A stretch of DNA of 22,079 nt, from NCBI GenBank assembly GCA_037189585.1, contig JBBCJA010000025.1:1-22079 (forward strand). The letters run 5' to 3'. This DNA is from Selenomonadaceae bacterium (GTDB lineage: Bacteria; Vulcanimicrobiota; Xenobia; Xenobiales; JADMJV01). The notes beneath the pieces are model-generated. The model had not been told where the DNA came from. It ran no database searches and saw nothing but the letters and a program-made list of their open reading frames with translations. The translations under genes and the position numbers were made by a program. Shown one piece after another: positions 2,426 through 12,301 of this stretch. Position 1 is the stretch's first letter. Every line of letters starts with the position of its first letter.

Positions 2426-5400
2426 TTAGGCAGCCGCCAGGTCGCGTCGACGTAGAGCGTCGAGAGCCAGGGCCACGTCCTCACTTTTCACCGGGCGGAA
2501 AGTTGGCGGTAGTCCGGGCCTGTGCATCAGGTCGAGCACTTCCAGTCCTCGCTGCTCGAGAACCTCGGTGATAAAGCGCACCTGCTCTTCAAGATCCGCC
2601 GCGTCCAGAGCCTGTCGGTTCTCGGCGTAGATCTCCGCGACATACTGAGCCAGGCGTTGACGGTCGAGCTCTCGATCGGCCAATCCGGAAACAAGCTCTA
2701 TCAAAAGCCACGATTCGTCCAAGGCTACGTACAGTCCACCCGTGACTTTCGCCACCGTCTCGAAGACCGCTTCGGCACCTCGGAAATTTCGAATCCCGCG
2801 GCAGCCCACCGTATGAACGGTAATACCCATCTCTCGACAGCCTTCGGCCTGAGTGTACCAGTGGCGTCCACAAGGGCAGCCCTCGGGGAATCCATCGCCC
2901 TCGGGTTCCACTCCGTGAGGAGGTGCATCCCCGACCATCACCACCAGACGGGCGGCCTCGCCATCCCAGTCCAGGTTCAACAGGTCGTGCAGTCCATCGG
3001 TGACGGCCTCCGGACCGTCTCCCCCACCGCTGGCTCGCATCCGTTGCACCGCGGCCGAAATCTCGTTCCAGTCGGAAGTCAAAGGCAGAACTCTGGTCAC
3101 GAAGGTCGCATCCTGGGGCGGATGGTCGCGGAAGGTCACCAGACCAAGCCGGAGCTCGGTGCACAGAGGAGAGCTACGCAAGACATTGATCAGCTCAAGC
3201 AAACGCTCTTGAACTTCCTGAATGTAGGGCCCCATGCTGCCCGTCTCGTCTATCAAAAAGACCAGATCGAGACGGCCAACGACGAGTTCCCGAGCTCTCG
3301 CCAGCTCCTCGGCGGAATAGAGAGCACGCTCTTTGTTGCCGGTAAGGCCAACCGGAGTTTGCAGGTTCTGACCCCTAGGCGGAGGTGGGGAGGGAATCGT
3401 CCACGAGCTGCAGGACCGCTTCGGAGGGGCGGAAGAGGCGGGAGGTTTATCATCGAAGAGGCCATGAACCGGCTCGTCCTCGCCCGAAAAGAGGCCTTCG
3501 ATGACGTAGTGGTCGACATCGAAGTTGCCATCCCCGGCGGAGGACGCACCGTCGTCGTCAAAGAGGCCTTCGGAGACGCTCAAATCCGGAGCAGCGGCGA
3601 AGGACTCGCTGTCGTCAAAGAGACTACTTTCGGAGACTGGGGAGAAAGCCGGTTCGGGAGCGGTCTCGCCGACCGCTCCGAAGAGGTCGCCGCCATCCGG
3701 GAAAGGCTCTTCGAAAACGCAATCGTCATCGACGTAAGCCTCTGGACTTGGCGATGGAGGTAGTGGCGGCGAGGCGCTTCTTAGCACCACAGTCTCGGGG
3801 AAACTCCTAGCCCCCAACATCGGGCGGTGGCCCAAAGTAGGCTTCTCCGAAGCAAAGGTTCGAGACACCAACCCCTTGCGTTCAGAGCGCGCTGAGTCAA
3901 GGGTACTCAGGCGCACCGGGCGGTCGGCCGGCGCGCTCTCGGCTCTCGGAGCCGATCTGGTCGCCGAGCGCCTCAGGCCGATGTCGGGTCCAACAGATTC
4001 CGCCGCGTCCACCGTGTGGGATGGTCCCTCGGGATCCACCGTCACCTCCTGGTCATCGGCCACCAACGCGGTGTACGGACTCATCAAGTGGTGCTTCAAG
4101 GCCAATCCCAGAGTCTCCAGGCGAACCTCGCTGAGACGCTCGGGATGGCGGACCAGTTGGTCCTGCAGCTCCTCGATCCTCTCACGAGCCCACACGCGCT
4201 CGATCCCGGGAGCTTCCTGGCTGTACTCGGGAAGGGTCAACCCCACCTCTTGCAAAAACGGTGTCCCGTCCGCGTTCGTCCCACGCACGCGTAGGGTGGC
4301 TGGGCCCTCACCGATGAATCGTCCGGTCAGTCTCAGAATCTGTCCAGAGAAAAGTTCGCGGCCGCCCCTGGGATAGATGTCCATCCCCTGCCCTTGCCCG
4401 CTCTCCACCTCCACCGTGACATTGGAGAGGATCGGGGCGGCCTGGGCCACTCTTTGGGCGAAACGCTCCAGCAGATGGGCCTCCCCACCCTGACTGACCT
4501 CAAAGGCGCCCCGGCCAAAACGAGCCAGCTTGTCGATCAGGTATCGGTTGGGCGTATTGCCCACACCCATCACGTAGAGTCTGGTGTCCTTGAGCCACTT
4601 GGGCAGTTCGCGCAGCAGCCGTCCCTCGTTTCCAACGGCACCGTCGGTGATCAAGACCGCGACCCGAGCTCGTCCATTTCCGGTCTCGGACCCCGCGGCG
4701 CGGAGCGCGACCTCAAGCTCGGTTCCTCCTTTGACCTTCTGTCCCTCGAGAAACTCCAGCGCGCGGACTTTGGAAGTCTCGTCGCAGGGCAACCACTCGG
4801 ACGAGAGTTCCAAAAGCTCGTGATGAAACGCGATCAGACGGAACCGGTCCGAAGGAGAAAGCTTGGAAAGGCAACTAGAAACAGCCTCCACAGCGGCCGT
4901 CAATCGACCAACCGAGGCCGAGAGATCGACCAAGAAAACGACGTCCTTACCTTCCGTGGTCTTCTCCTCCGGCTGGACCCTTTGATACACGCCGCAGTAG
5001 TCGCACTGCCAAGCATGACCTAATCCCGGAATCTCCGAGACCGCCTCTTTCGAACCCATGGGCGCTCCACAGTTGCCGCAACTATAGCCCTCCACGTTGG
5101 TGGTTTCCTGGGCTCCGAGCGCGACTGGGGCGGGGATGGTCAGGGCAAAAGTTCCGGGTTTGTCGAGGGCCCGCTCGTACCACACTTGTGGAAGTAGTCC
5201 CCGGTTCTGACAAGGCCAGACCAAAACGAAATCACGATTAGCGACTTTCTCCTCTGGGTCCAGGCTAACCCGAAAGCGGTCACCGTGAGTCTCGACTTTC
5301 ACCGCGTGAGAAGGGGAATAAGGAGCCGTCCGGCCGTCCACGGCCCTGAGCTCGAACTCGAGTGACACCGGACTCTGGCGCTCGGTCGATCGCGGGCGTG

Positions 5401-5932
5401 GGGGCCGGATCCGAGCGCCGTCCGCGACCTCGGTCGTTCCATGTCCCTCCGGCATGCCGGAATAGTAACGTTCGGAAGCCACCATCGGAAAAGCGAAACG
5501 CCACTCGCCGAAATCGTAAGCCACCGGTTCCTGATACTCCATCAAGACCTCGATGGTCGCGCCAGCGGAGATGTTGGCCACGGATAGAGTGAAGAGGTTC
5601 GGTCGCTCTTGCTCTAAAAGGGTGGCGGCGCGGCCTTCCGAGCGGGCCTTCTCGTAAACCCGGCGGGCCTCTTCCTTCTCTTTGACCACCGCCTTGACCA
5701 CCCGATCGGCGATGCGAAACTCCATACGGAAGACGGAGCCTTGATGGGGAAGCGGAAAGAGATAAGTGGCCTCTAAAGTCTCGTTTGTAGGGTTACGAAA
5801 ACTTTGCCGCACCTCCACCTGGGCCAGCGGTCCTCGGACCGAGGCTTTGACTTTCGTCCATTCCAGGGGAAGAACGCGCCCGTCGAGCGTCTGTAGAGTG
5901 CCTTCACTAATTCTGGGTTCAGTGGCTTGCAT
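2426..5932 (-). CDS. Large cytoplasmic VIT - zinc ribbon - vWA - disordered acidic-repeat linker - vWA (Cys-cluster) protein
   Basis: The ORF is open from a TTG at 6145, but that overlaps the upstream gene. The ATG at 5932..5930 (M72) lies 44 bp after the upstream stop and gives about 1168 aa. An ATG at 6028 is an alternative start. The VIT domain is aa 80-230 with the hallmark TYLFPLP. A CxxC-x20-CxxC zinc ribbon is at aa 357-384. vWA-1 has MIDAS DLSASVG at aa 405. A Ser/Pro-rich, acidic disordered region spans aa 700-940. vWA-2 begins LVFLIDETGSMG at aa 961 and has an inserted CPCGRHWYTQAEGCREMGITVHTVGC cluster. There is no signal peptide. Confidence 0.8.
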   Translation of the reverse strand: MQATEPRISEGTLQTLDGRVLPLEWTKVKASVRGPLAQVEVRQSFRNPTNETLEATYLFPLPHQGSVFRMEFRIADRVVKAVVKEKEEARRVYEKARSEGRAATLLEQERPNLFTLSVANISAGATIEVLMEYQEPVAYDFGEWRFAFPMVASERYYSGMPEGHGTTEVADGARIRPPRPRSTERQSPVSLEFELRAVDGRTAPYSPSHAVKVETHGDRFRVSLDPEEKVANRDFVLVWPCQNRGLLPQVWYERALDKPGTFALTIPAPVALGAQETTNVEGYSCGNCGAPMGSKEAVSEIPGLGHAWQCDYCGVYQRVQPEEKTTEGKDVVFLVDLSASVGRLTAAVEAVSSCLSKLSPSDRFRLIAFHHELLELSSEWLPCDETSKVRALEFLEGQKVKGGTELEVALRAAGSETGNGRARVAVLITDGAVGNEGRLLRELPKWLKDTRLYVMGVGNTPNRYLIDKLARFGRGAFEVSQGGEAHLLERFAQRVAQAAPILSNVTVEVESGQGQGMDIYPRGGRELFSGQILRLTGRFIGEGPATLRVRGTNADGTPFLQEVGLTLPEYSQEAPGIERVWARERIEELQDQLVRHPERLSEVRLETLGLALKHHLMSPYTALVADDQEVTVDPEGPSHTVDAAESVGPDIGLRRSATRSAPRAESAPADRPVRLSTLDSARSERKGLVSRTFASEKPTLGHRPMLGARSFPETVVLRSASPPLPPSPSPEAYVDDDCVFEEPFPDGGDLFGAVGETAPEPAFSPVSESSLFDDSESFAAAPDLSVSEGLFDDDGASSAGDGNFDVDHYVIEGLFSGEDEPVHGLFDDKPPASSAPPKRSCSSWTIPSPPPPRGQNLQTPVGLTGNKERALYSAEELARARELVVGRLDLVFLIDETGSMGPYIQEVQERLLELINVLRSSPLCTELRLGLVTFRDHPPQDATFVTRVLPLTSDWNEISAAVQRMRASGGGDGPEAVTDGLHDLLNLDWDGEAARLVVMVGDAPPHGVEPEGDGFPEGCPCGRHWYTQAEGCREMGITVHTVGCRGIRNFRGAEAVFETVAKVTGGLYVALDESWLLIELVSGLADRELDRQRLAQYVAEIYAENRQALDAADLEEQVRFITEVLEQRGLEVLDLMHRPGLPPTFRPVKSEDVALALDALRRRDLAAA

Positions 5933-5975
5933 TTCCACAGCTTCGAGCTTGAAGCGATCGACCCCTTGACCAAAA

Positions 5976-7211
5976 TCAACGTGCGACGACTTGAAGACTA
6001 TGGTAGATCTCACCGCTTTGAATCTCATTAAGAAACGACTCTCCGCGCAGACGTTCCCGTGTCGGATAGCTCTTGAGATACTCGTGAGCGCGCACGACGA
6101 GCGCTCGGTCGCGCACCTTGTCGGCGGCTTCGGTGAGATCCTCAAAATAGAGAGGGTAGTCCGCTCCCAAATATTCCACCACCGGAGGTAGAGGGTTCAC
6201 CAAAATCGGCGTGGTTCTCGCGATACATTCCACAATCGCGTTGTTCGCCGAGGAGTCGTAAAGGTGAACGAAAGCCACGTTCTCGCTCAGCCAGCTATCA
6301 TACTCCTGGTTGGTTAGCCCCACCACGCGACGGACGTTGGTCCAGTCGGGAGTTCCTTCGTGGGAAAGGATCAACTGGAAAGTGTCTTCCAACCCCTGCA
6401 GACCCGAGGGCACAAGCCAGATCTTCTCATAGTCGTCATAGACCGGCAGGTCAAAAATGCTGATCAGCCGGCGCAGCCACCATCCCACCTGAATAATTTT
6501 CGGCGAGGTGTTCTTGAGGAAGCGTTCCGGATCAAATTGCGCCTCGGGAAACTCCGTGGGGTGCAAGACGACTTCCACCGGTTTCCCTGTCCTCTCGCGC
6601 AGCCAAGTCGCCAAGTATTCCGACAGAGTGTAGAACCCCCGACAGTTCGGGAGACTCTCCTGGAAGGCGGGATGACTAAGAATCTGCTCTGGAGAGCCCG
6701 TACTTAGAGGATACCAGGACGGCATCTCCAGCGGATTGTGCAGAAAGCCGACCCAGTCGCGCCGATAGGGCGGCTTTCGGCCTTCCCAACATCGGCCCGC
6801 GTAACGCGCCATGGCGAAGCTGTTTTCCAAGAAGCCGTCGAGCAGAATTCCACCTTCGTTATGCAAGGGTCTCAAATGGTGCAGCGCGTAGGCCCAGCCA
6901 CTTCGATGGTGGGAAAAGCGCCGCTGACGGCGCAGGCAGAAGCGCCCCTCCGGATGGTTCACCAACTCATTGTCGGCCAGGACCTCTTCACACAGTTCGC
7001 TCAGCATGAAGAACTCCGAGTGGTCCTTGGGATAACGCCGGCAGATCTCGAGTGACTCCTGGGCCTCGCCTTCCATCAGAAGAAGCTCCGCCAGAAGCCT
7101 CCAGGCCGGTTCGTACCCGGGCTCTTTTTCCACCACCTGCCGACAGGCGGCGATCGCGGTGGGCAGGTTGCCCTTGGCGGCCCAGGCACGAGCTAAGATA
7201 AATCCTTTCAT
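5976..7211 (-). CDS. TPR-repeat protein with C-terminal domain of unknown function (possibly GT-B-like fold)
   Basis: The protein is 411 aa with an ATG start at 7211 that overlaps the upstream stop (ATGA). The N-terminus has TPR-like helices (ARAWAAKGNLPTAIAACRQVVEKEPGYEPAWRLLAELLLMEGEAQ). The C-terminal block LYDSSANNAIVECIARTTPILVNPLPPVVEYLGADYPLYF resembles the nucleotide-sugar-binding half of GT-B glycosyltransferases. I saw no sulfotransferase PAPS motifs. Confidence 0.5.
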   Translation of the reverse strand: MKGFILARAWAAKGNLPTAIAACRQVVEKEPGYEPAWRLLAELLLMEGEAQESLEICRRYPKDHSEFFMLSELCEEVLADNELVNHPEGRFCLRRQRRFSHHRSGWAYALHHLRPLHNEGGILLDGFLENSFAMARYAGRCWEGRKPPYRRDWVGFLHNPLEMPSWYPLSTGSPEQILSHPAFQESLPNCRGFYTLSEYLATWLRERTGKPVEVVLHPTEFPEAQFDPERFLKNTSPKIIQVGWWLRRLISIFDLPVYDDYEKIWLVPSGLQGLEDTFQLILSHEGTPDWTNVRRVVGLTNQEYDSWLSENVAFVHLYDSSANNAIVECIARTTPILVNPLPPVVEYLGADYPLYFEDLTEAADKVRDRALVVRAHEYLKSYPTRERLRGESFLNEIQSGEIYHSLQVVAR

Positions 7212-8281
7212 AACAAAGTTTCCAAGAGACGCGGCACCGCTTCGACATCGCTGCCCAACTCTAAAACATAGGCCGGCGCCTGCCGCAAAATCGTGGCCAT
7301 TCGCGCCAAACTGGCCTGCCCGGTGCCGGCAAGTTGAAACAGGGTTGTCGGCGCCAGGGCCAAAAGAGCCGCTGACCCGGACAATTCCTGAAGTCGACTC
7401 TCCCTGGCTTGGACCGGCGGTATGCGAGGTACGACGACCGCCTTAAGGGGAGCCTCGTTCAATACCTGTTGGGGCCGATGAGCGTGAACGTCCAGCAGAA
7501 TCTTATCTCCTTCCTCGCGTTGCCGATTCTCCACCGCGGCCGACCACTCGGGGAAACGGTCAAGGTCCATCTCTCCGACCAGTTTGGCCGTGCCGTAGAG
7601 ACACCAGATGCGCCCCTGTCCAGCCAGGCAGTAGTCGTCGGCCAGGTAGCCCATCCCGGCTCTAAGACACGACAGAGCCGTGCTGGACTTTCCCGAGCCC
7701 CCGGCCCCGGTCAGAAGTATGGCGCCGTCGGCCGAACCGACCGCCGCGGCGTGGAGATACTGCAGTCCCTGTCCTTCGGCCCACCAGTTCAGGATCGTCT
7801 GTAGTGGTGAACCCAACTCCCAATAAGGGATCTTCTTCGCGTCCTCGACCCAGTAGAGAGCCTGAGCTCTCTGTCGATCCAGGACACTCAGGATTTTGCA
7901 TGGCCCCTGACGATAGACGGTGAAAATCCTGTCGTCATTGAAACCTCTCAATTCGTGCCTGGCGTCTAGGGCCTCATAGATCGAATGATTGACGGCCGAG
8001 AAGAGAGCGCGCACCAGCAGGGGCAGATAGCGACCTTCTCCCCCACCGTCCCAAAGGGAGACAGTTAAGGAAGGAGAGGCATCGATCTGTTTCACTTTCC
8101 AAGGGCGAAGAGCTGGTACCAGGCGCTCCAAAGGCTCAGCCCCGGCACTCAGCAGACTGATCGTTTGTCCACCTAAAGCTCCGTCCCAGCGAACCTGCCC
8201 CAGCTCCGTCTCGGCCTGACGATACGTCCGAGAGAGAATGTCAAAAAACTCGACTCGTTCCTGTTCCACAGTGAAGGTCAA
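7208..8281 (-). CDS. HprK-related P-loop kinase (HPr kinase/phosphorylase C-terminal-domain homologue)
   Basis: ILLTGAGGSGKSSTALSCLRAGMGYLADD matches the HprK Walker-A/kinase core (vLitGpSGsGKSelAL..rGh.LVaDD). There is no in-frame ATG near the 5' end. The start is TTG at 8281, overlapping the GT2 stop as TTGA, or GTG at 8269. The stop overlaps the next gene's ATG. Confidence 0.7.
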   Translation of the reverse strand: MTFTVEQERVEFFDILSRTYRQAETELGQVRWDGALGGQTISLLSAGAEPLERLVPALRPWKVKQIDASPSLTVSLWDGGGEGRYLPLLVRALFSAVNHSIYEALDARHELRGFNDDRIFTVYRQGPCKILSVLDRQRAQALYWVEDAKKIPYWELGSPLQTILNWWAEGQGLQYLHAAAVGSADGAILLTGAGGSGKSSTALSCLRAGMGYLADDYCLAGQGRIWCLYGTAKLVGEMDLDRFPEWSAAVENRQREEGDKILLDVHAHRPQQVLNEAPLKAVVVPRIPPVQARESRLQELSGSAALLALAPTTLFQLAGTGQASLARMATILRQAPAYVLELGSDVEAVPRLLETLL

Positions 8282-8982
8282 GTTAGAGACTCCTGAACCT
8301 GACGACGCCTTCGCAAGGCGGCCAGGACGACCTTGGCATAGTCTTGCCTGGCCTCCGGCTTCAAGCGACCCGAGTTGTGAGCGTGCAAGCGGCGCCGAAG
8401 AACCAGTTCCGGTAAGAGCGCGAAACGCGCCCCGTTCTCTTGCGCCCGCAAAACCCAGTCGACAAATTCCGCTGCCCGATACTCGGGGGTGAAGAGCCCC
8501 GTTCTTTCAAAAACTGAACGCCTCACCATAAAAGTCCCAGGCAGCTGGGCCTGCTGACGACGCGAATCGTGCGGGAATACCCCAGGAGGGTCGCTAAACT
8601 GCTCCGCCTCTCCAAAAACTCCATCGAATTCCGGTCGCGAGGACAGATAGTTCCATCCGGCGGTCAAGCGGCCCGGCAACATCAAGTCGTCAGCATCCAT
8701 GAAGGCCAGCCACTCTCCGAGTGCCGCCTTGACTCCAAGATTTCTCGCCGCGCTGGCGCCCAGATTGTCCTGACGAAAGCATTGTACCCGCGGAAACTCT
8801 CGAGCTATCTCGAGAGTCCCATCAGTGGACCCGTCGTCGATGAGCAAAATCTCCCTCACGGGAGAAACGCTGGCGAGAACGCTCTCAAGGCATGCTCGAA
8901 GATACTTTTCCCCGTTATAGACTGGAATAATAACGCTAATATCGAGCATATTCAGCGACTCTAAGACGCGACGGTAGGCCAT
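8278..8982 (-). CDS. Family-2 glycosyltransferase (GT-A fold)
   Basis: ISVIIPVYNGEKYLRACLESV...ILLIDDGSTDGT...FRQDNLGASAARNLG...FMDADD carries the canonical GT2 motifs, including DxD. The start is ATG at 8982 or at 8949, and it overlaps the PqqD-like gene's 3' end. Confidence 0.75.
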   Translation of the reverse strand: MAYRRVLESLNMLDISVIIPVYNGEKYLRACLESVLASVSPVREILLIDDGSTDGTLEIAREFPRVQCFRQDNLGASAARNLGVKAALGEWLAFMDADDLMLPGRLTAGWNYLSSRPEFDGVFGEAEQFSDPPGVFPHDSRRQQAQLPGTFMVRRSVFERTGLFTPEYRAAEFVDWVLRAQENGARFALLPELVLRRRLHAHNSGRLKPEARQDYAKVVLAALRRRRQVQESLT

Positions 8983-9401
8983 CCCTCGGCGGCGACGTCG
9001 TGAACGGGGTCCAGAAGAAGAAGACCTTCCATATCCTCGTGGCGAGCCAATACTGGCGGATGGAATTTGAGTCTGTCCCGAGTGTGGCCAGCCAAAGTCT
9101 CGTGCTGTTCGAGCACCGGCCCCTCGCTGAGCAGCCCCTCGGAAACCAGCTCTGTCAGAAATGTCTCCACCGCTCCAAGAGCCTGATCCTGTTCGACATC
9201 GTAACTTTCTAACAATAGCCCGCTCAGGGCGTGAGCGGAAAGCGACTGTTGCAAACCAGCCCAGATCAAAGCTCCCGCATCGGTCAGGCTATAATAGTGA
9301 CCCATCTTGAGGTTGACGACGACAACCTCCCCGTCGAGTGTTTCATGAACCACATCGTCCGAATTTATAACGAACCCCATCGGCGAAGTTTTAACCTCCA
9401 T
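8961..9401 (-). CDS. PqqD-family / RiPP recognition element (RRE)-like protein with C-terminal extension
   Basis: FVINSDDVVHETLDGEVVVVNLKMGHYYSLTDAGALIWAGLQ...DVEQDQALGAVETFLTELVSEGLL is the PqqD/RRE signature, a beta-strand then winged helix. The ATG at 9401 has an AGGAAT Shine-Dalgarno 9 nt upstream. The ORF could extend to an ATG at 9458. About 55 extra C-terminal residues follow the domain. Confidence 0.65.
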   Translation of the reverse strand: MEVKTSPMGFVINSDDVVHETLDGEVVVVNLKMGHYYSLTDAGALIWAGLQQSLSAHALSGLLLESYDVEQDQALGAVETFLTELVSEGLLSEGPVLEQHETLAGHTRDRLKFHPPVLARHEDMEGLLLLDPVHDVAAEGWPTVAS

Positions 9402-9456
9402 AAGATCGATTCCTGGCTCGCAGGTCGGAATTCCTTGATGTTGAACGAGGCGACCC

Positions 9457-11154
9457 ATGGTCGGCCGACTTCTACAACTTCTCGACAGTCGTGGTCGACG
9501 GCAGGCCGTGCTGTTAGCCCTTCTCAGCGCGGCCTCGGCTGCTCTGGAGTTAGGGGCGGCCGCCAGTATGGTGGCATTTATGTCAGCCGCCGCGCGTCCC
9601 GACCTTTTGAGCCGTGTTTCCTACTATCAGCATCTTGGGCAGCCCAGCCTCTCGAGCTTGATGATCGGGCTAGGAGTTCTTTGTCTGGTCACCTTGTCTT
9701 CGAGCAATCTTCTGATGAGCCTATGTAACCTGCTCAGCCTGAAGTTTTCTCATGAACAGCAACGCCGCCTGTCGACCCGCCTCTTTCGTCTCTACCTCAA
9801 CCAGCCGTACGAATGGCACCTGCGCCGGCATCCGTCAACGCTTGTTTATCACCTCGGTCAGGCTCGCCAGCTCGCGCCCCAGGGCTTTCTACCGCTTCTC
9901 CAGATCGTTTCTCGTTTTTTTGGCATTCTGGTTCTCGTGGGCGCGCTGCTCAAACTCCGCCCTTTGGTCACGATCGTGGGACTCCTGACCCTAGCGGTCA
10001 TCTATGCGGGAGTCTTCCGTTTCTGCCGCAAACGCTCTCTTGCGACCTACGCGGCGGAATGGGACATCGAGCAGTCGATGGGTCGAACAATAGCCGAGCC
10101 GATGGTAGGGATGCGAGATGTTCGTTTAGCCGCGGGTGAGTCGAGCTACGAAAGCTCCTACTCCGAGCAGCTTGGCGGGATCGCCGAGCAGCAGCGCACA
10201 CGACTGTTCTACTCGGAGGCTCCCCGACTCTTCTTGCAAACCCTGGTCTACTCCGTGCTGCTGGGCTCCGTCGTCCTCCTGGCTATTCTCTATGAAGATG
10301 GAGCTAAAGTGGTGGCTGAGGCGACCTTTTATGCCATCATCGCCTATCGACTGTTGCCGCTGGTTCAGCAAGTTTTGTCGAGCCTGTCGCAACTCGAGCA
10401 CGGAGAGACCATCGAGCGGATGCTTCGCGATGAGCTCAAAGCCTCCATCGCGACCCTCCCCCAGCCGTCGAAGTCGGCGCGACCGCTGGACCGAGAGTGG
10501 AGCTTGCGTGATGTCGACTTCTCTTACGACGACAGGTCCCCCCTCTTTCGAAATCTCAACTTGATCATTCCGCGGGGAGCGTGCATCGGAATCGCGGGTC
10601 CCAGCGGGCACGGGAAGACGACGCTGATCAATCTGCTGATCGGGCTGTTGACTCCTCAGCGAGGAGATATCTTAGCCGACGGGCGTCCCCTCGAAGGCTC
10701 GGAACTTCGCGCCTTCTGGACAACAGTGGGATACGTCCCCCAGGACATCTTTCTGACTGATAACAGCCTGCTCCACAACATCACGCTGGGACAGCCCCTC
10801 GACCATGAACGCGTCCGGGAGGTCGCCAGGCTTTCTCGGCTCGATGAATTCGCCGAAACGCTCCCCCAAGGTTACGAGACAAAAATCGGAGACCGAGGGT
10901 CACGCCTGAGCGGCGGCCAGCGTCAACGACTCGGTATCGCGCGAGCGCTATATCGCCGACCGAGCATCCTGGTTCTCGATGAAGCCACGAGCGCGTTGGA
11001 CCGCGGCCTCGAGGCCGATGTTATCGCTACCATTCGAAGTCTGGCCGGAACCCACACTATTCTCATGGTCGCCCATCAAAGAGCTAGTTTGAACTGTTGT
11101 GACCGCATCTACCGCGTGGAGAAAGGAGAGCTATCCCCCGAAGATGAGCTCTGA
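9457..11154 (+). CDS. ABC exporter, fused transmembrane and ATP-binding domains (peptide-exporter type)
   Basis: The protein is 565 aa. The N-terminal half is hydrophobic with about 6 TM segments. The C-terminal NBD has Walker A GPSGHGKTT, signature LSGGQRQR, Walker B ILVLDEATSALD and an H-loop. A GAGG lies 6 nt upstream of the ATG at 9457. Confidence 0.85.
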   Translation: MVGRLLQLLDSRGRRQAVLLALLSAASAALELGAAASMVAFMSAAARPDLLSRVSYYQHLGQPSLSSLMIGLGVLCLVTLSSSNLLMSLCNLLSLKFSHEQQRRLSTRLFRLYLNQPYEWHLRRHPSTLVYHLGQARQLAPQGFLPLLQIVSRFFGILVLVGALLKLRPLVTIVGLLTLAVIYAGVFRFCRKRSLATYAAEWDIEQSMGRTIAEPMVGMRDVRLAAGESSYESSYSEQLGGIAEQQRTRLFYSEAPRLFLQTLVYSVLLGSVVLLAILYEDGAKVVAEATFYAIIAYRLLPLVQQVLSSLSQLEHGETIERMLRDELKASIATLPQPSKSARPLDREWSLRDVDFSYDDRSPLFRNLNLIIPRGACIGIAGPSGHGKTTLINLLIGLLTPQRGDILADGRPLEGSELRAFWTTVGYVPQDIFLTDNSLLHNITLGQPLDHERVREVARLSRLDEFAETLPQGYETKIGDRGSRLSGGQRQRLGIARALYRRPSILVLDEATSALDRGLEADVIATIRSLAGTHTILMVAHQRASLNCCDRIYRVEKGELSPEDEL

Positions 11155-12301
11155 CCAGACCTATCCGTTCTTTCCTCAAAAAGATGCGCTCGACTTATTA
11201 AGGGCGGCCCTCGACCCCGATCATCAAAGAGCCCATCAGGCCTGGCTACGCTGGAGACAACTCCACACGCTTCAAGCCTGCGACATCAAGATGAACCGCC
11301 TGATGCCGCTCATCTATCGTCGCTTTCAGCAGGGCGGCCTGGATCCCGACGACCACAGAATCTTAAGAGGGGTTTACCGGTACAACTGGACCCGAAACCA
11401 GCTGGCCCTACGCCAAGCGCGGACGGTCTCCCTACAGCTCCAGGCGGCCGGAATCCAGGTCTTACTTCTCAAGGGGCTCCCGCTCATTCTTGACTACTAT
11501 CGCGACCTAGGTGTCAGGCCTATGTGGGATTTCGATCTTTTAGTCCATCCGGAACGTCAACGAGAAGCGCTAGAACTTCTGTCCAGGCTGGACTGGCATA
11601 ACCACGAGCCTTGCCACGAGGTATGGATAGGCCACGCCTGCGGGTTGCAGGGTCCCGGCAACATCTCGCTTGACCTTCACTGGTTCGTCATGCACTCCAG
11701 TCGTTGGGAGGGCGCCGACGACGACTTTTGGGAGCGTTCGGAAAAGCTCTCGCTTCGCGAGCCCGGTAAAGAGCTGGGTGGTCCCGTCGTGAGGGCTCTT
11801 TGCCCCGAACACCAGCTCATCCATGTCTGTATTCACGGAGCTCGCTTTGATTCGAACCAGGACCTCGGCTGGGTCAGCGACGCTTATCACATCCTGACCA
11901 ACCGAGAGTTGGACTGGGAGCTCGTCCTCGAATCGGCGAAGCGGCACCGAGTTGTCTCGGCCCTTCACCTGGCTCTGTCTTACCTGTGCGACAAACTGCA
12001 TGCCCCCGTTCCCGAGGCTGTGATGGTGCGGCTTGGCGCTGCCCCTAAAACCTGGAGCGACCGACTCTACTTTCATCTCGCGGTCAAAGGGGGTCCCCTG
12101 AATTTCTGGTTGATGCCGGTCCTCGACTATCTGCGCTGGCAGCCCCAACCGACTCTTCTCAACTTCCTTGAATATCTTCGCCAACGCTGGTTTCTGGCCA
12201 GAACTTTCCACATTCCGTTCTCGGCCGCCCAGCGAATAGCGATGCGTGCCGTGAAATGGGCTCAGAATCGAATCTCGGCGGATTCGAAGCCCTCTCGCTG
12301 A
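11144..12301 (+). CDS. Uncharacterised nucleotidyltransferase (PF14907-like, lasso/HprK-cluster-associated family)
   Basis: LLLKGLPLILDYYRDLGVRPMWDFDLLV fits the Pol-beta-superfamily motif G..x..D.D of the uncharacterised nucleotidyltransferase family. The ATG at 11144 has AAAGGAGAG 14 nt upstream and overlaps the ABC gene's end by 11 bp. The ORF is also open from 11099. Confidence 0.6.
   Translation: MSSDQTYPFFPQKDALDLLRAALDPDHQRAHQAWLRWRQLHTLQACDIKMNRLMPLIYRRFQQGGLDPDDHRILRGVYRYNWTRNQLALRQARTVSLQLQAAGIQVLLLKGLPLILDYYRDLGVRPMWDFDLLVHPERQREALELLSRLDWHNHEPCHEVWIGHACGLQGPGNISLDLHWFVMHSSRWEGADDDFWERSEKLSLREPGKELGGPVVRALCPEHQLIHVCIHGARFDSNQDLGWVSDAYHILTNRELDWELVLESAKRHRVVSALHLALSYLCDKLHAPVPEAVMVRLGAAPKTWSDRLYFHLAVKGGPLNFWLMPVLDYLRWQPQPTLLNFLEYLRQRWFLARTFHIPFSAAQRIAMRAVKWAQNRISADSKPSR

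Follow-up and report, generated by a model that had tools for sequence, protein, structure and literature searches.

A predicted cytoplasmic VIT-vWA protein carries a putative zinc ribbon and a second vWA module that is repeatedly joined to intracellular vWA proteins

We analyzed a stretch of 22,079 nucleotides (nt) of contig JBBCJA010000025.1 (here called the window), in which the minus strand encodes, at positions 2426 to 5932, a protein of 1,168 amino acids (aa) with two vWA domains. From the N terminus to the C terminus, its parts are a VIT domain, a beta-sandwich, a predicted zinc ribbon, a vWA domain with a complete MIDAS (metal ion-dependent adhesion site), further beta-sandwich strands with a helical hairpin, a disordered linker of 230 aa, and a second vWA domain with a helical tail. 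The C-terminal module (the second vWA domain, vWA-2, plus the tail; here the C-module) was found to be joined repeatedly to intracellular vWA proteins of two kinds, either as a fusion (in both orders) or as an operon neighbor, and this recurrent joining constitutes the strongest evidence, of an indirect kind, for a joint function of the two halves of the window protein. The zinc-ribbon-bearing two-module form and the recurrent partnership of the C-module were not described in the literature that we found, in which intracellular VIT-vWA proteins are already known. By the measure of sequence conservation the observation was confirmed as real, since its features are kept among sequences just 40 to 60% identical, which far exceeds chance.

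A search of 5.8 billion proteins yielded at least 120 homologues with the same Pfam set (VIT, the vWA families, and VWA_4) at 90% clustering; for one of these 120 (P0019), VWA_4 was not listed. The homologues were 40 to 87% identical in aligned regions, and those with a named source came nearly all from Myxococcota (Polyangium, Chondromyces, Archangium, Vitiosangium, Haliangium, Labilithrix, and Sandaracinaceae). They are named either "VIT domain-containing protein" or with mis-transferred labels, such as "Ca-activated chloride channel." In agreement with an earlier note made from the sequence of this DNA alone, the family has no characterized member. The longest minus-strand open reading frame (ORF) over the region extends from 2426 to 6145 (stop codon at 2426 to 2428), and the ATG at 5932 gives the 1,168-aa product, the first residues of which are MQATEPRISEGTLQT. 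This start fits the family, because the stretch ahead of a conserved glycine (G11) is mostly 8 to 13 residues long in the 120 aligned homologues. A public NCBI copy of the protein (P0001; 100% identical) is called from an ATG 32 codons further upstream, and the resulting extension overlaps the preceding gene and contains no hydrophobic stretch. Pfam placed VIT (PF08487) at residues 26 to 133 (E = 5.4e-33; 113.9 bits against a gathering cutoff of 26.5), vWA families at residues 330 to 477 (E = 1e-17 to 8e-16; VWA, 59.3 bits against a cutoff of 23.8), and VWA_4 (PF25106) at residues 890 to 982 (E = 2e-9; 37.7 to 41.7 bits against a cutoff of 27), the last match taking in profile positions 2 to 86 of 169 only. 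These matches back the VIT, vWA, and vWA assignment of the earlier note.

Signal peptides and transmembrane segments were judged from Kyte-Doolittle hydropathy in 19-residue windows, for both candidate starts, and from the N-terminal lengths of the homologues. No signal peptide or transmembrane segment was detected in this way in the window protein or the 120 homologues: the highest 19-residue mean was 1.5 and lay inside the VIT domain, and the N terminus was not hydrophobic whether read from the ATG at 5932 or from the start 32 codons upstream. Almost none of the 120 homologues has space for a signal peptide ahead of VIT (extensions mostly 8 to 13 aa), and the C terminus (...RRRDLAAA) contains no LPXTG motif, no transmembrane segment, and no sorting signal. 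Judged from its sequence, this is a soluble protein of the cytoplasm, which is what the earlier note had deduced from the lack of a signal peptide, and the further-upstream start, with its 32-aa extension in P0001, does not alter this. Its premise that VIT-vWA proteins are normally secreted did not hold, given that the best sequence match in the PDB is the intracellular PARP4 and that an intracellular class has been reviewed (PMC10539598). This class, which includes PARP4, VWA5A, and Dictyostelium Vwa1, occurs in eukaryotes and some prokaryotes (PMC10539598).

The N-terminal module (module 1, residues 1 to 640) was modeled by AlphaFold2 with 60 homologues (mean predicted local distance difference test [pLDDT] score, 83; predicted template modeling [pTM] score, 0.85). 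The N terminus and VIT domain (residues 1 to 140; 5513 to 5932, minus strand, as are all parts of the gene) aligned with the VIT domain of PARP4 at an E of 8e-15. In the model, the VIT beta-sandwich (to about residue 148) and a low-confidence loop (residues 154 to 176 below a pLDDT of 50) are followed by six strands (residues 189 to 267), which form the first half of a second beta-sandwich (residues 141 to 275, loop included; 5108 to 5512), and by the ribbon (residues 282 to 320). The first vWA domain (vWA-1, residues 326 to 498; 4439 to 4957; modeled fold, residues 329 to 497) comes next and carries a complete MIDAS, in which D336, S338, S340, and D430 are invariant in the 120 homologues and position 404 (T404 in the window protein) is T or S in all of them. 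Seven strands (residues 502 to 567, within residues 500 to 570) then complete the sandwich, and a helical hairpin (residues 577 to 613) and a closing strand (together residues 575 to 632) end the module, these parts, supported by AlphaFold2 and Foldseek, lying at 4037 to 4435.

In the PDB, PARP4 was the best sequence match, over both VIT and vWA, followed by ITIH4 and ITIH1. Foldseek comparison of the whole N-terminal module with the PDB gave ITIH1 (E = 1.6e-32 over approximately 660 columns), a VWFA protein of the Trypanosoma brucei axonemal doublet (E = 1.9e-20), the ArnA-ArnB complex (8s05; E = 3.3e-14), the Catenulispora vWA protein 4fx5 (E = 1.2e-12), and Sec23/24 (E = 2.5e-10, with a TM-score of approximately 0.3). 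The literature on the T. brucei axoneme gave no lead on its VWFA chains ("vwa" was absent from the texts searched). Module 1 is an ITIH/PARP4-type VIT-vWA unit, with the vWA domain embedded in a split beta-sandwich and a helical hairpin after it, and the predicted model shares its plan, at the level of the fold, with archaeal ArnB and the Sec23/24 core.

The four cysteines of the ribbon (C285-x2-C288-x21-C310-x2-C313, with the cysteines at nt 5080 to 4994 and the whole ribbon at 4973 to 5089) are invariant in 120 of 120 homologues, and the region was modeled as three short strands with pLDDT values of 72 to 85. Cysteine conservation and the model place this predicted four-Cys ribbon at the junction of the sandwich and vWA-1. 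The earlier note had seen a ribbon between VIT and vWA-1, and its four cysteines stand, but the spacing is x21 and not the x20 given there. Against Pfam at E values up to 10, the ribbon gave many generic zinc-ribbon matches, all below cutoff, and none to zf-Sec23_Sec24 or zf-RanBP.

The C-module (residues 868 to 1168) comprises vWA-2 (residues 885 to 1072; 2717 to 3280) and the tail (residues 1073 to 1168; 2429 to 2716), and its AlphaFold2 model (pLDDT, 88.8; pTM, 0.85) shows a vWA fold and then a helical tail, in which a long helix and short helices are followed by a beta hairpin and one last helix. The motifs of vWA-2 are D895-x-T897-G-S899-M, R-D-H937-P-P-Q, G-G-G-D972-G-P-E975, and G-D1002-A-P-P-H1006-G, and a loop carries C1019-P-C1021, C1032, and C1044. 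D895, T897, S899, M900, G969-G-G-D972, P974-E975, and D1002-A-P-P-H1006-G are invariant in the 120 homologues, and both vWA metal sites of the protein are complete. A profile of the C-module, searched against 1.84 billion representatives, gave 18,817 matches at E values of at most 1e-3, 10,325 at most 1e-10, and 699 at most 1e-30. The earlier note had called the MIDAS of the second vWA a variant one ("DETGS"); the motif is present as described, but it is not degenerate, D-x-T-G-S-M, GGGDGPE, and GDAPPHG being the invariant signature of a large subfamily (the 699 representatives of the strictest threshold). All top 50 Foldseek matches of the C-module in the PDB were integrin beta chains, in their integrin beta I-like domains (best E, 4.7e-11), and the family profile aligned DETGSM, GGGDGPE, and GDAPPH with DVSASM, NIDTPEGG, and TDQTSH of integrin beta-8, which we take to be the MIDAS and synergistic metal-binding site loops. 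The match to Pfam Integrin_beta covered a partial stretch and scored 20.1 to 24.4 bits, just under the cutoff of 24.8, and the Asp-Asp pair that forms part of the adjacent-to-MIDAS (ADMIDAS) site in integrin beta-3 is absent from vWA-2, where P902 and Y903 stand at the corresponding positions. Because of the score under the cutoff and the lack of the ADMIDAS aspartates, vWA-2 is a vWA domain with integrin-beta-type metal-site motifs and not an integrin beta domain. For the tail, neither a profile compared with the PDB nor 15 members scanned with Pfam produced a meaningful match. The tail and vWA-2 are conserved together in homologues from Asgard archaea and eukaryotes. Cyanobacterial, Ktedonobacterial, and Planctomycetota forms have shorter tails that resemble a winged helix-turn-helix (weak GntR/MarR matches); the myxobacterial/Asgard tail does not.

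The cysteines C1019, C1021, C1032, and C1044 (nt 2878 to 2801) are conserved in 120, 118, 93, and 120 of the 120 homologues, respectively. The CPCG...GC...GC insertion of the earlier note was located exactly (nt 2801 to 2878), but these residues belong to an elaborated, well-ordered beta4-alpha5 loop and form no separate insert. In the wider C-module family, cyanobacterial proteins retain C1019 only, Ktedonobacterial and Planctomycetota proteins retain C1019 and C1021, and many Asgard proteins retain C924 and C1044 only; H937 and H1006 are universal.

Between the two modules lies a disordered linker (residues 640 to 870; 3323 to 4015), which is hypervariable in length and sequence among the homologues, basic in its first part, and composed of 18% Ser plus Thr and 13% Pro. 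Residues 731 to 830 (3443 to 3742) form an acidic block with 28 D/E versus 1 K/R, and within it are five x-L-F-[DGS]-x motifs (GDLFGA, SSLFDD, EGLFDD, EGLFSG, and HGLFDD). This block is common to the closest relatives only, and many distant relatives have in the linker, instead, a short amphipathic "GG[LMF][LF]..[LV]K" motif. Since a MIDAS binds a carboxylate, the acidic motifs could serve as internal pseudo-ligands of such a site, which is speculation. An FHA domain is present in 21 of the 120 relatives, directly after module 1 at the start of the linker, and extra CxxC motifs occur in the linker of 14 of the 120.

Free C-modules including the tail were found by genome scan, at 35 to 49% identity, in Asgard archaea (Thor-, Hermod-, and Promethearchaeota), cyanobacteria, Ktedonobacteria, Planctomycetota, Acidobacteriota, and Roseiflexaceae; the free proteins are approximately 275 to 320 aa long, and Amoebozoa are also among the carriers. 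Eukaryotic C-modules were 33 to 42% identical to that of the window, with the same motifs, and came from Rhodelphis, the chytrids Hyaloraphidium and Cladochytrium, the amoebozoans Filamoeba and Endostelium, the euglenozoan Entosiphon, and the heterolobosean Pharyngomonas. The relatives with varied fusions include P0318, P0333, P0371, P0324, and P0374. The C-module stands after VIT-vWA, in the order of the window, in Myxococcota, Armatimonadota, and a "Xenobia" metagenome-assembled genome, and the reverse order (vWA-2, tail, VIT, and vWA) was seen in Entosiphon and two further sequences (P0371 among them) and in Filamoeba, where a Ras GTPase domain follows. In the chytrid Cladochytrium, vWA-2 precedes TROVE and a Ro60-type vWA. 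At 17 bacterial loci, a free C-module gene lies directly after a gene for a helical-plus-vWA protein of approximately 480 to 500 aa, the profile of which matches the solved TROVE-domain proteins 9l5y/9kop over nearly the full length (E = 4.9e-4). No VIT-vWA gene adjoining a stand-alone C-module gene was found. The C-module has thus been joined, by fusion in either order and as an operon neighbor, to VIT-vWA and TROVE-vWA proteins.

Some further features of these loci were recorded. The pairs of TROVE-like and free C-module genes are found among loci L059 to L078 (e.g., the Dictyobacter pair of L066, at about 8200 to 11800), in cyanobacteria, Ktedonobacteria, Planctomycetota, and Acidobacteriota, and ORFs of 72 and 330 aa recur in the same cluster at the Ktedonobacteria/Roseiflexaceae loci. 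In Pharyngomonas, an F-box-like motif lies directly ahead of the C-module, and the region before this motif matches the profile of the bacterial TROVE-like proteins. One Thorarchaeota contig (L054, 10001 to 11671) carries two free C-module genes in tandem. An Asgard "integrin beta-4-like" family has been described next to FtsZ (PMC9258230); a link to it was considered and rejected, as the recurrent clusters of the Asgard loci checked contained no tubulin/FtsZ neighbor.

The reading that we prefer, tentatively and with somewhat less than even confidence, is that the window protein serves in the cytoplasm as a scaffold for interactions that depend on a cation and that, in some lineages, are coupled to phosphorylation. 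The intracellular metal-dependent or scaffolding function put forward in the earlier note remains the best reading in this respect, as an inference. Each vWA domain would hold a divalent cation at its intact MIDAS and capture a carboxylate side chain of a partner protein, and modules 1 and 2 would either pair up or both clamp the same target, which would give an assembly scaffold that depends on the cation. Pairs of vWA proteins are familiar from Sec23/24, Ku70/80, TFIIH p34/p44, and INTS13/14. The zinc ribbon may act as a structural or docking element on the sandwich/helical surface, paralleling the zinc finger of ArnA on ArnB. Assembly might be coupled to Ser/Thr phosphorylation in the FHA-bearing relatives, and in the window protein perhaps via the Ser/Pro-rich linker; a vWA-STPK-FHA-PP2C operon has been described in Deinococcus (10.64898/2026.01.23.701218).

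Several points weigh against the scaffold reading. No member of the family has a known partner, ligand, or phenotype, the pairing of the modules derives from fusions alone, and the window protein itself has no FHA domain. The ribbon has no specific family match and is absent from a minority of fused relatives, e.g., an Armatimonadota protein; on these two grounds, the sub-threshold generic matches and the absences, it is a lineage-specific insertion that is not essential to the architecture. Neighboring genes were compared by tblastn of 10 window neighbors against 78 loci and by all-against-all clustering of ORFs in 48 full-length loci from species-representative genomes, and no gene neighbor was conserved across the 48 loci, the only synteny being at genus level within Polyangium. 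The response-regulator/Ser-Thr kinase gene downstream of the VIT gene is absent even from a relative 83% identical (L079), and at 10 of 41 loci a kinase is encoded no more than 10 kb away, a count still to be set against the kinase-rich background of Myxococcota. Because no neighbor recurs in the 48 loci, the gene behaves as a solitary unit, and its context yields no functional clue.

In the window itself, the VIT gene is part of a co-directional, tightly spaced string that consists of genes for a PqqD-family protein, a GT2 glycosyltransferase, an HprK-related kinase, a TPR protein, the VIT protein, a 330-aa protein, and the response-regulator/Ser-Thr kinase, all on the minus strand. The PqqD-family peptide chaperone is encoded at 8961 to 9458, the GT2 glycosyltransferase at 8278 to 8982, and the HprK-related kinase (NCBIfam matches below cutoff) at 7208 to 8281. 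The TPR protein (411 aa; 5976 to 7211) has one N-terminal TPR region and a C-terminal part that looks glycosyltransferase-like by eye, with no family match, and the 330-aa protein (1419 to 2411) has no Pfam or NCBIfam match. The gene at 139 to 1416, two genes downstream of the VIT gene, encodes a fusion of a receiver domain with a Hanks-type Ser/Thr kinase, which makes an uncommon bridge, in one polypeptide, of two-component and eukaryotic-like kinase signaling. On the plus strand are genes for an ABC exporter (9457 to 11154) and an NTP_transf_5 nucleotidyltransferase (11099 to 12301). The region from 7208 to 12301, on both strands, resembles an "HPr-rel-A" or lasso-type cassette of the kind that makes ribosomally synthesized and posttranslationally modified peptides, with all NCBIfam matches below cutoff. 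The relative L079 keeps the upstream block (ABC exporter, PqqD, GT2, HprK-like, and TPR protein). An apparent neighbor cluster ("c2") was rejected as opposite-strand ORFs in GC-rich DNA.

Four other explanations of the protein were weighed. That it acts as an adhesin, secreted or on the cell surface, in the manner of ITIH heavy chains or of the sortase targets of marine proteobacteria, and is exported through a missed start or route, is barely conceivable and can be regarded as essentially excluded. ITIH1 is its top structural match, and the NCBIfam model for the marine proteobacterial sortase target, TIGR03788, matches residues 26 to 632 at an E of 3e-110; however, the score of 369.3 bits is far under the cutoff of 551.65, and the nonhydrophobic N terminus from either start, the short extensions ahead of VIT in the homologues, the lack of a C-terminal sorting signal, and the place of the intracellular PARP4 at the head of the PDB sequence matches all speak for the cytoplasm. 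The invariant four-Cys ribbon and the cytoplasmic FHA domains of relatives would likewise suit a reducing compartment. A metal or redox sensor, in which the Cys/His-rich loop of vWA-2 (C1019, C1021, H1024, C1044, and H1006) would either bind a metal (Zn, Fe, or Cu) or gate the binding of ligand through reversible disulfides, seems quite improbable. It would accord with the near-complete conservation of C1019, C1021, and C1044 in the fused family, with the family-wide invariance of H937 and H1006, and with vWA topology, by which these three cysteines should lie in or beside the post-beta4 loop, on the MIDAS face; but across the wider family the cysteines were gained and lost independently, unlike the all-or-none pattern of a metal center, and a center shared by the whole vWA-2 subfamily is for this reason unlikely. 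The loop may be a clade-specific second site or redox switch in the fused family.

A place in an RNA-protein particle akin to the vault or Ro, with the C-module as an adaptor for VIT-vWA and TROVE-vWA proteins and the ribbon in contact with nucleic acid, strikes us as improbable. It draws on the fusion or adjacency of the C-module to TROVE/Ro60-type proteins, on its fusion to VIT-vWA in both orders, and on PARP4 as the best PDB sequence match for VIT. Yet no RNA gene, homologue of MVP, or RNA-binding domain turned up near the gene, where no search was aimed at them, the ribbon matches no nucleic-acid-binding family above threshold, the bacterial TROVE assignment stands on the profile E of 4.9e-4, and the connection to the vault would be one of resemblance. 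That the protein belongs to a vWA-MoxR, vWA-ternary, or TerY-P type of conflict or anti-phage system is highly unlikely. Proteins with vWA domains recur together with FHA domains, kinases, and zinc ribbons in conflict systems of multicellular bacteria (PMC7159879), and the Ser/Thr kinase encoded two genes downstream matches kinase models of PADLOC. The same paper (Kaur et al., 2020) does not mention a VIT/vWA/vWA-2 architecture, and a PADLOC scan of the protein and four neighbors gave no match for the protein and, for the neighbors, matches of the kinase to generic kinase models only. No MoxR AAA+ ATPase, effector, or PP2C is linked to the gene in the window, and there is neither a neighbor kept in the 48 loci nor, even in the 83% relative, the kinase itself.

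We return to the cation-dependent scaffold, of which a bolder version may be considered, namely, that vWA-2 plus its tail is an ancient dedicated partner of VIT-vWA and TROVE-vWA proteins, from bacteria through Asgard archaea to eukaryotes, and that the fused myxobacterial protein is a covalently linked vWA-vWA heterodimer. We rate this as unlikely, and if true, it would define a widespread system of cytoplasmic assembly that has gone unrecognized. The two minor vault proteins, PARP4 and TEP1, have VIT-vWA and TROVE-vWA as their signature domains, and the bacterial form has a zinc finger at the same topological position as Sec23/24. If the link reflects mere domain shuffling, the window protein would be an ordinary uncharacterized multidomain protein. 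The intracellular VIT-vWA proteins (PARP4, VWA5A, and Dictyostelium Vwa1) have no agreed molecular function, and the conserved bacterial family (at least 120 members when clustered at 90%), with its intact metal sites and second module, could serve as a model for them; a purified bacterial protein would be far more tractable than vault or axonemal components. The Rosetta-stone fusions give a concrete hypothesis, which is that one module binds the other or that both have the same target. In the family, a zinc finger, a vWA domain, a beta-sandwich, and a helical domain stand in the order of Sec23/24, and the FHA domain of some members recalls the ArnA/ArnB switch.

Among known systems, the window protein resembles PARP4, VWA5A/BCSC-1, and Dictyostelium Vwa1, which likewise have VIT followed by vWA, are cytoplasmic, and have no signal peptide. 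In these three, VIT and vWA are not separated by a zinc ribbon, and there is no vWA-2-plus-tail module, which some protist relatives do carry, at the N terminus; the window protein, for its part, lacks PARP, BRCT, and MVP-binding regions. With ITIH1 it shares VIT, the split beta-sandwich, a vWA domain with a MIDAS, and a helical C-terminal part, whereas the ITIH proteins are secreted and have neither a zinc ribbon nor a second module. ITIH proteins are glycosylated and covalently coupled to bikunin/hyaluronan.

The zinc-finger cysteines of Sec23/24 are spaced approximately x18. In ArnB of Sulfolobus, the vWA domain splits a beta-sandwich and a helical bundle follows, and the zinc finger of ArnA docks on the sandwich and the C-terminal domain (PMC12852372); phosphorylation by ArnC recruits the FHA domain of ArnA, and the same plan with the zinc finger in cis was noted for Sec23/24 (PMC12852372). 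ArnA/ArnB, Sec23/24, and the window protein have in common a vWA domain in a beta-sandwich, a helical domain after it, and an associated four-Cys zinc finger, which is in cis in Sec23/24 and, as a predicted ribbon, in the window protein and in trans in ArnA, and the coupling of FHA and phosphorylation in ArnA/ArnB may be paralleled in the 21 of the 120 relatives with an FHA domain. The spacing between the Cys pairs is x21 in the window protein but x10 in ArnA, ArnB has no VIT domain, and the likeness to Sec23/24 is at the level of the fold only, the window protein having no zf-Sec23_Sec24 match and no gelsolin domain. With integrin beta I-like domains, vWA-2 shares the motifs D-x-[ST]-x-S-M, D-x-P-E, and [TG]-D-x-x-x-H; unlike integrin beta, the window protein is cytoplasmic, offers no hybrid or PSI domain context, and lacks the ADMIDAS Asp pair. 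Asgard archaea, bacteria, and protists have uncharacterized stand-alone proteins of the VWA_4 type, built of a vWA domain plus tail, which share with the C-module 33 to 58% identity over 250 to 290 residues, tail included, and the same invariant motifs, and they differ from it in being free proteins, in standing in another order of fusion, or in being fused to TROVE/Ro60, Ras, or F-box-like regions.

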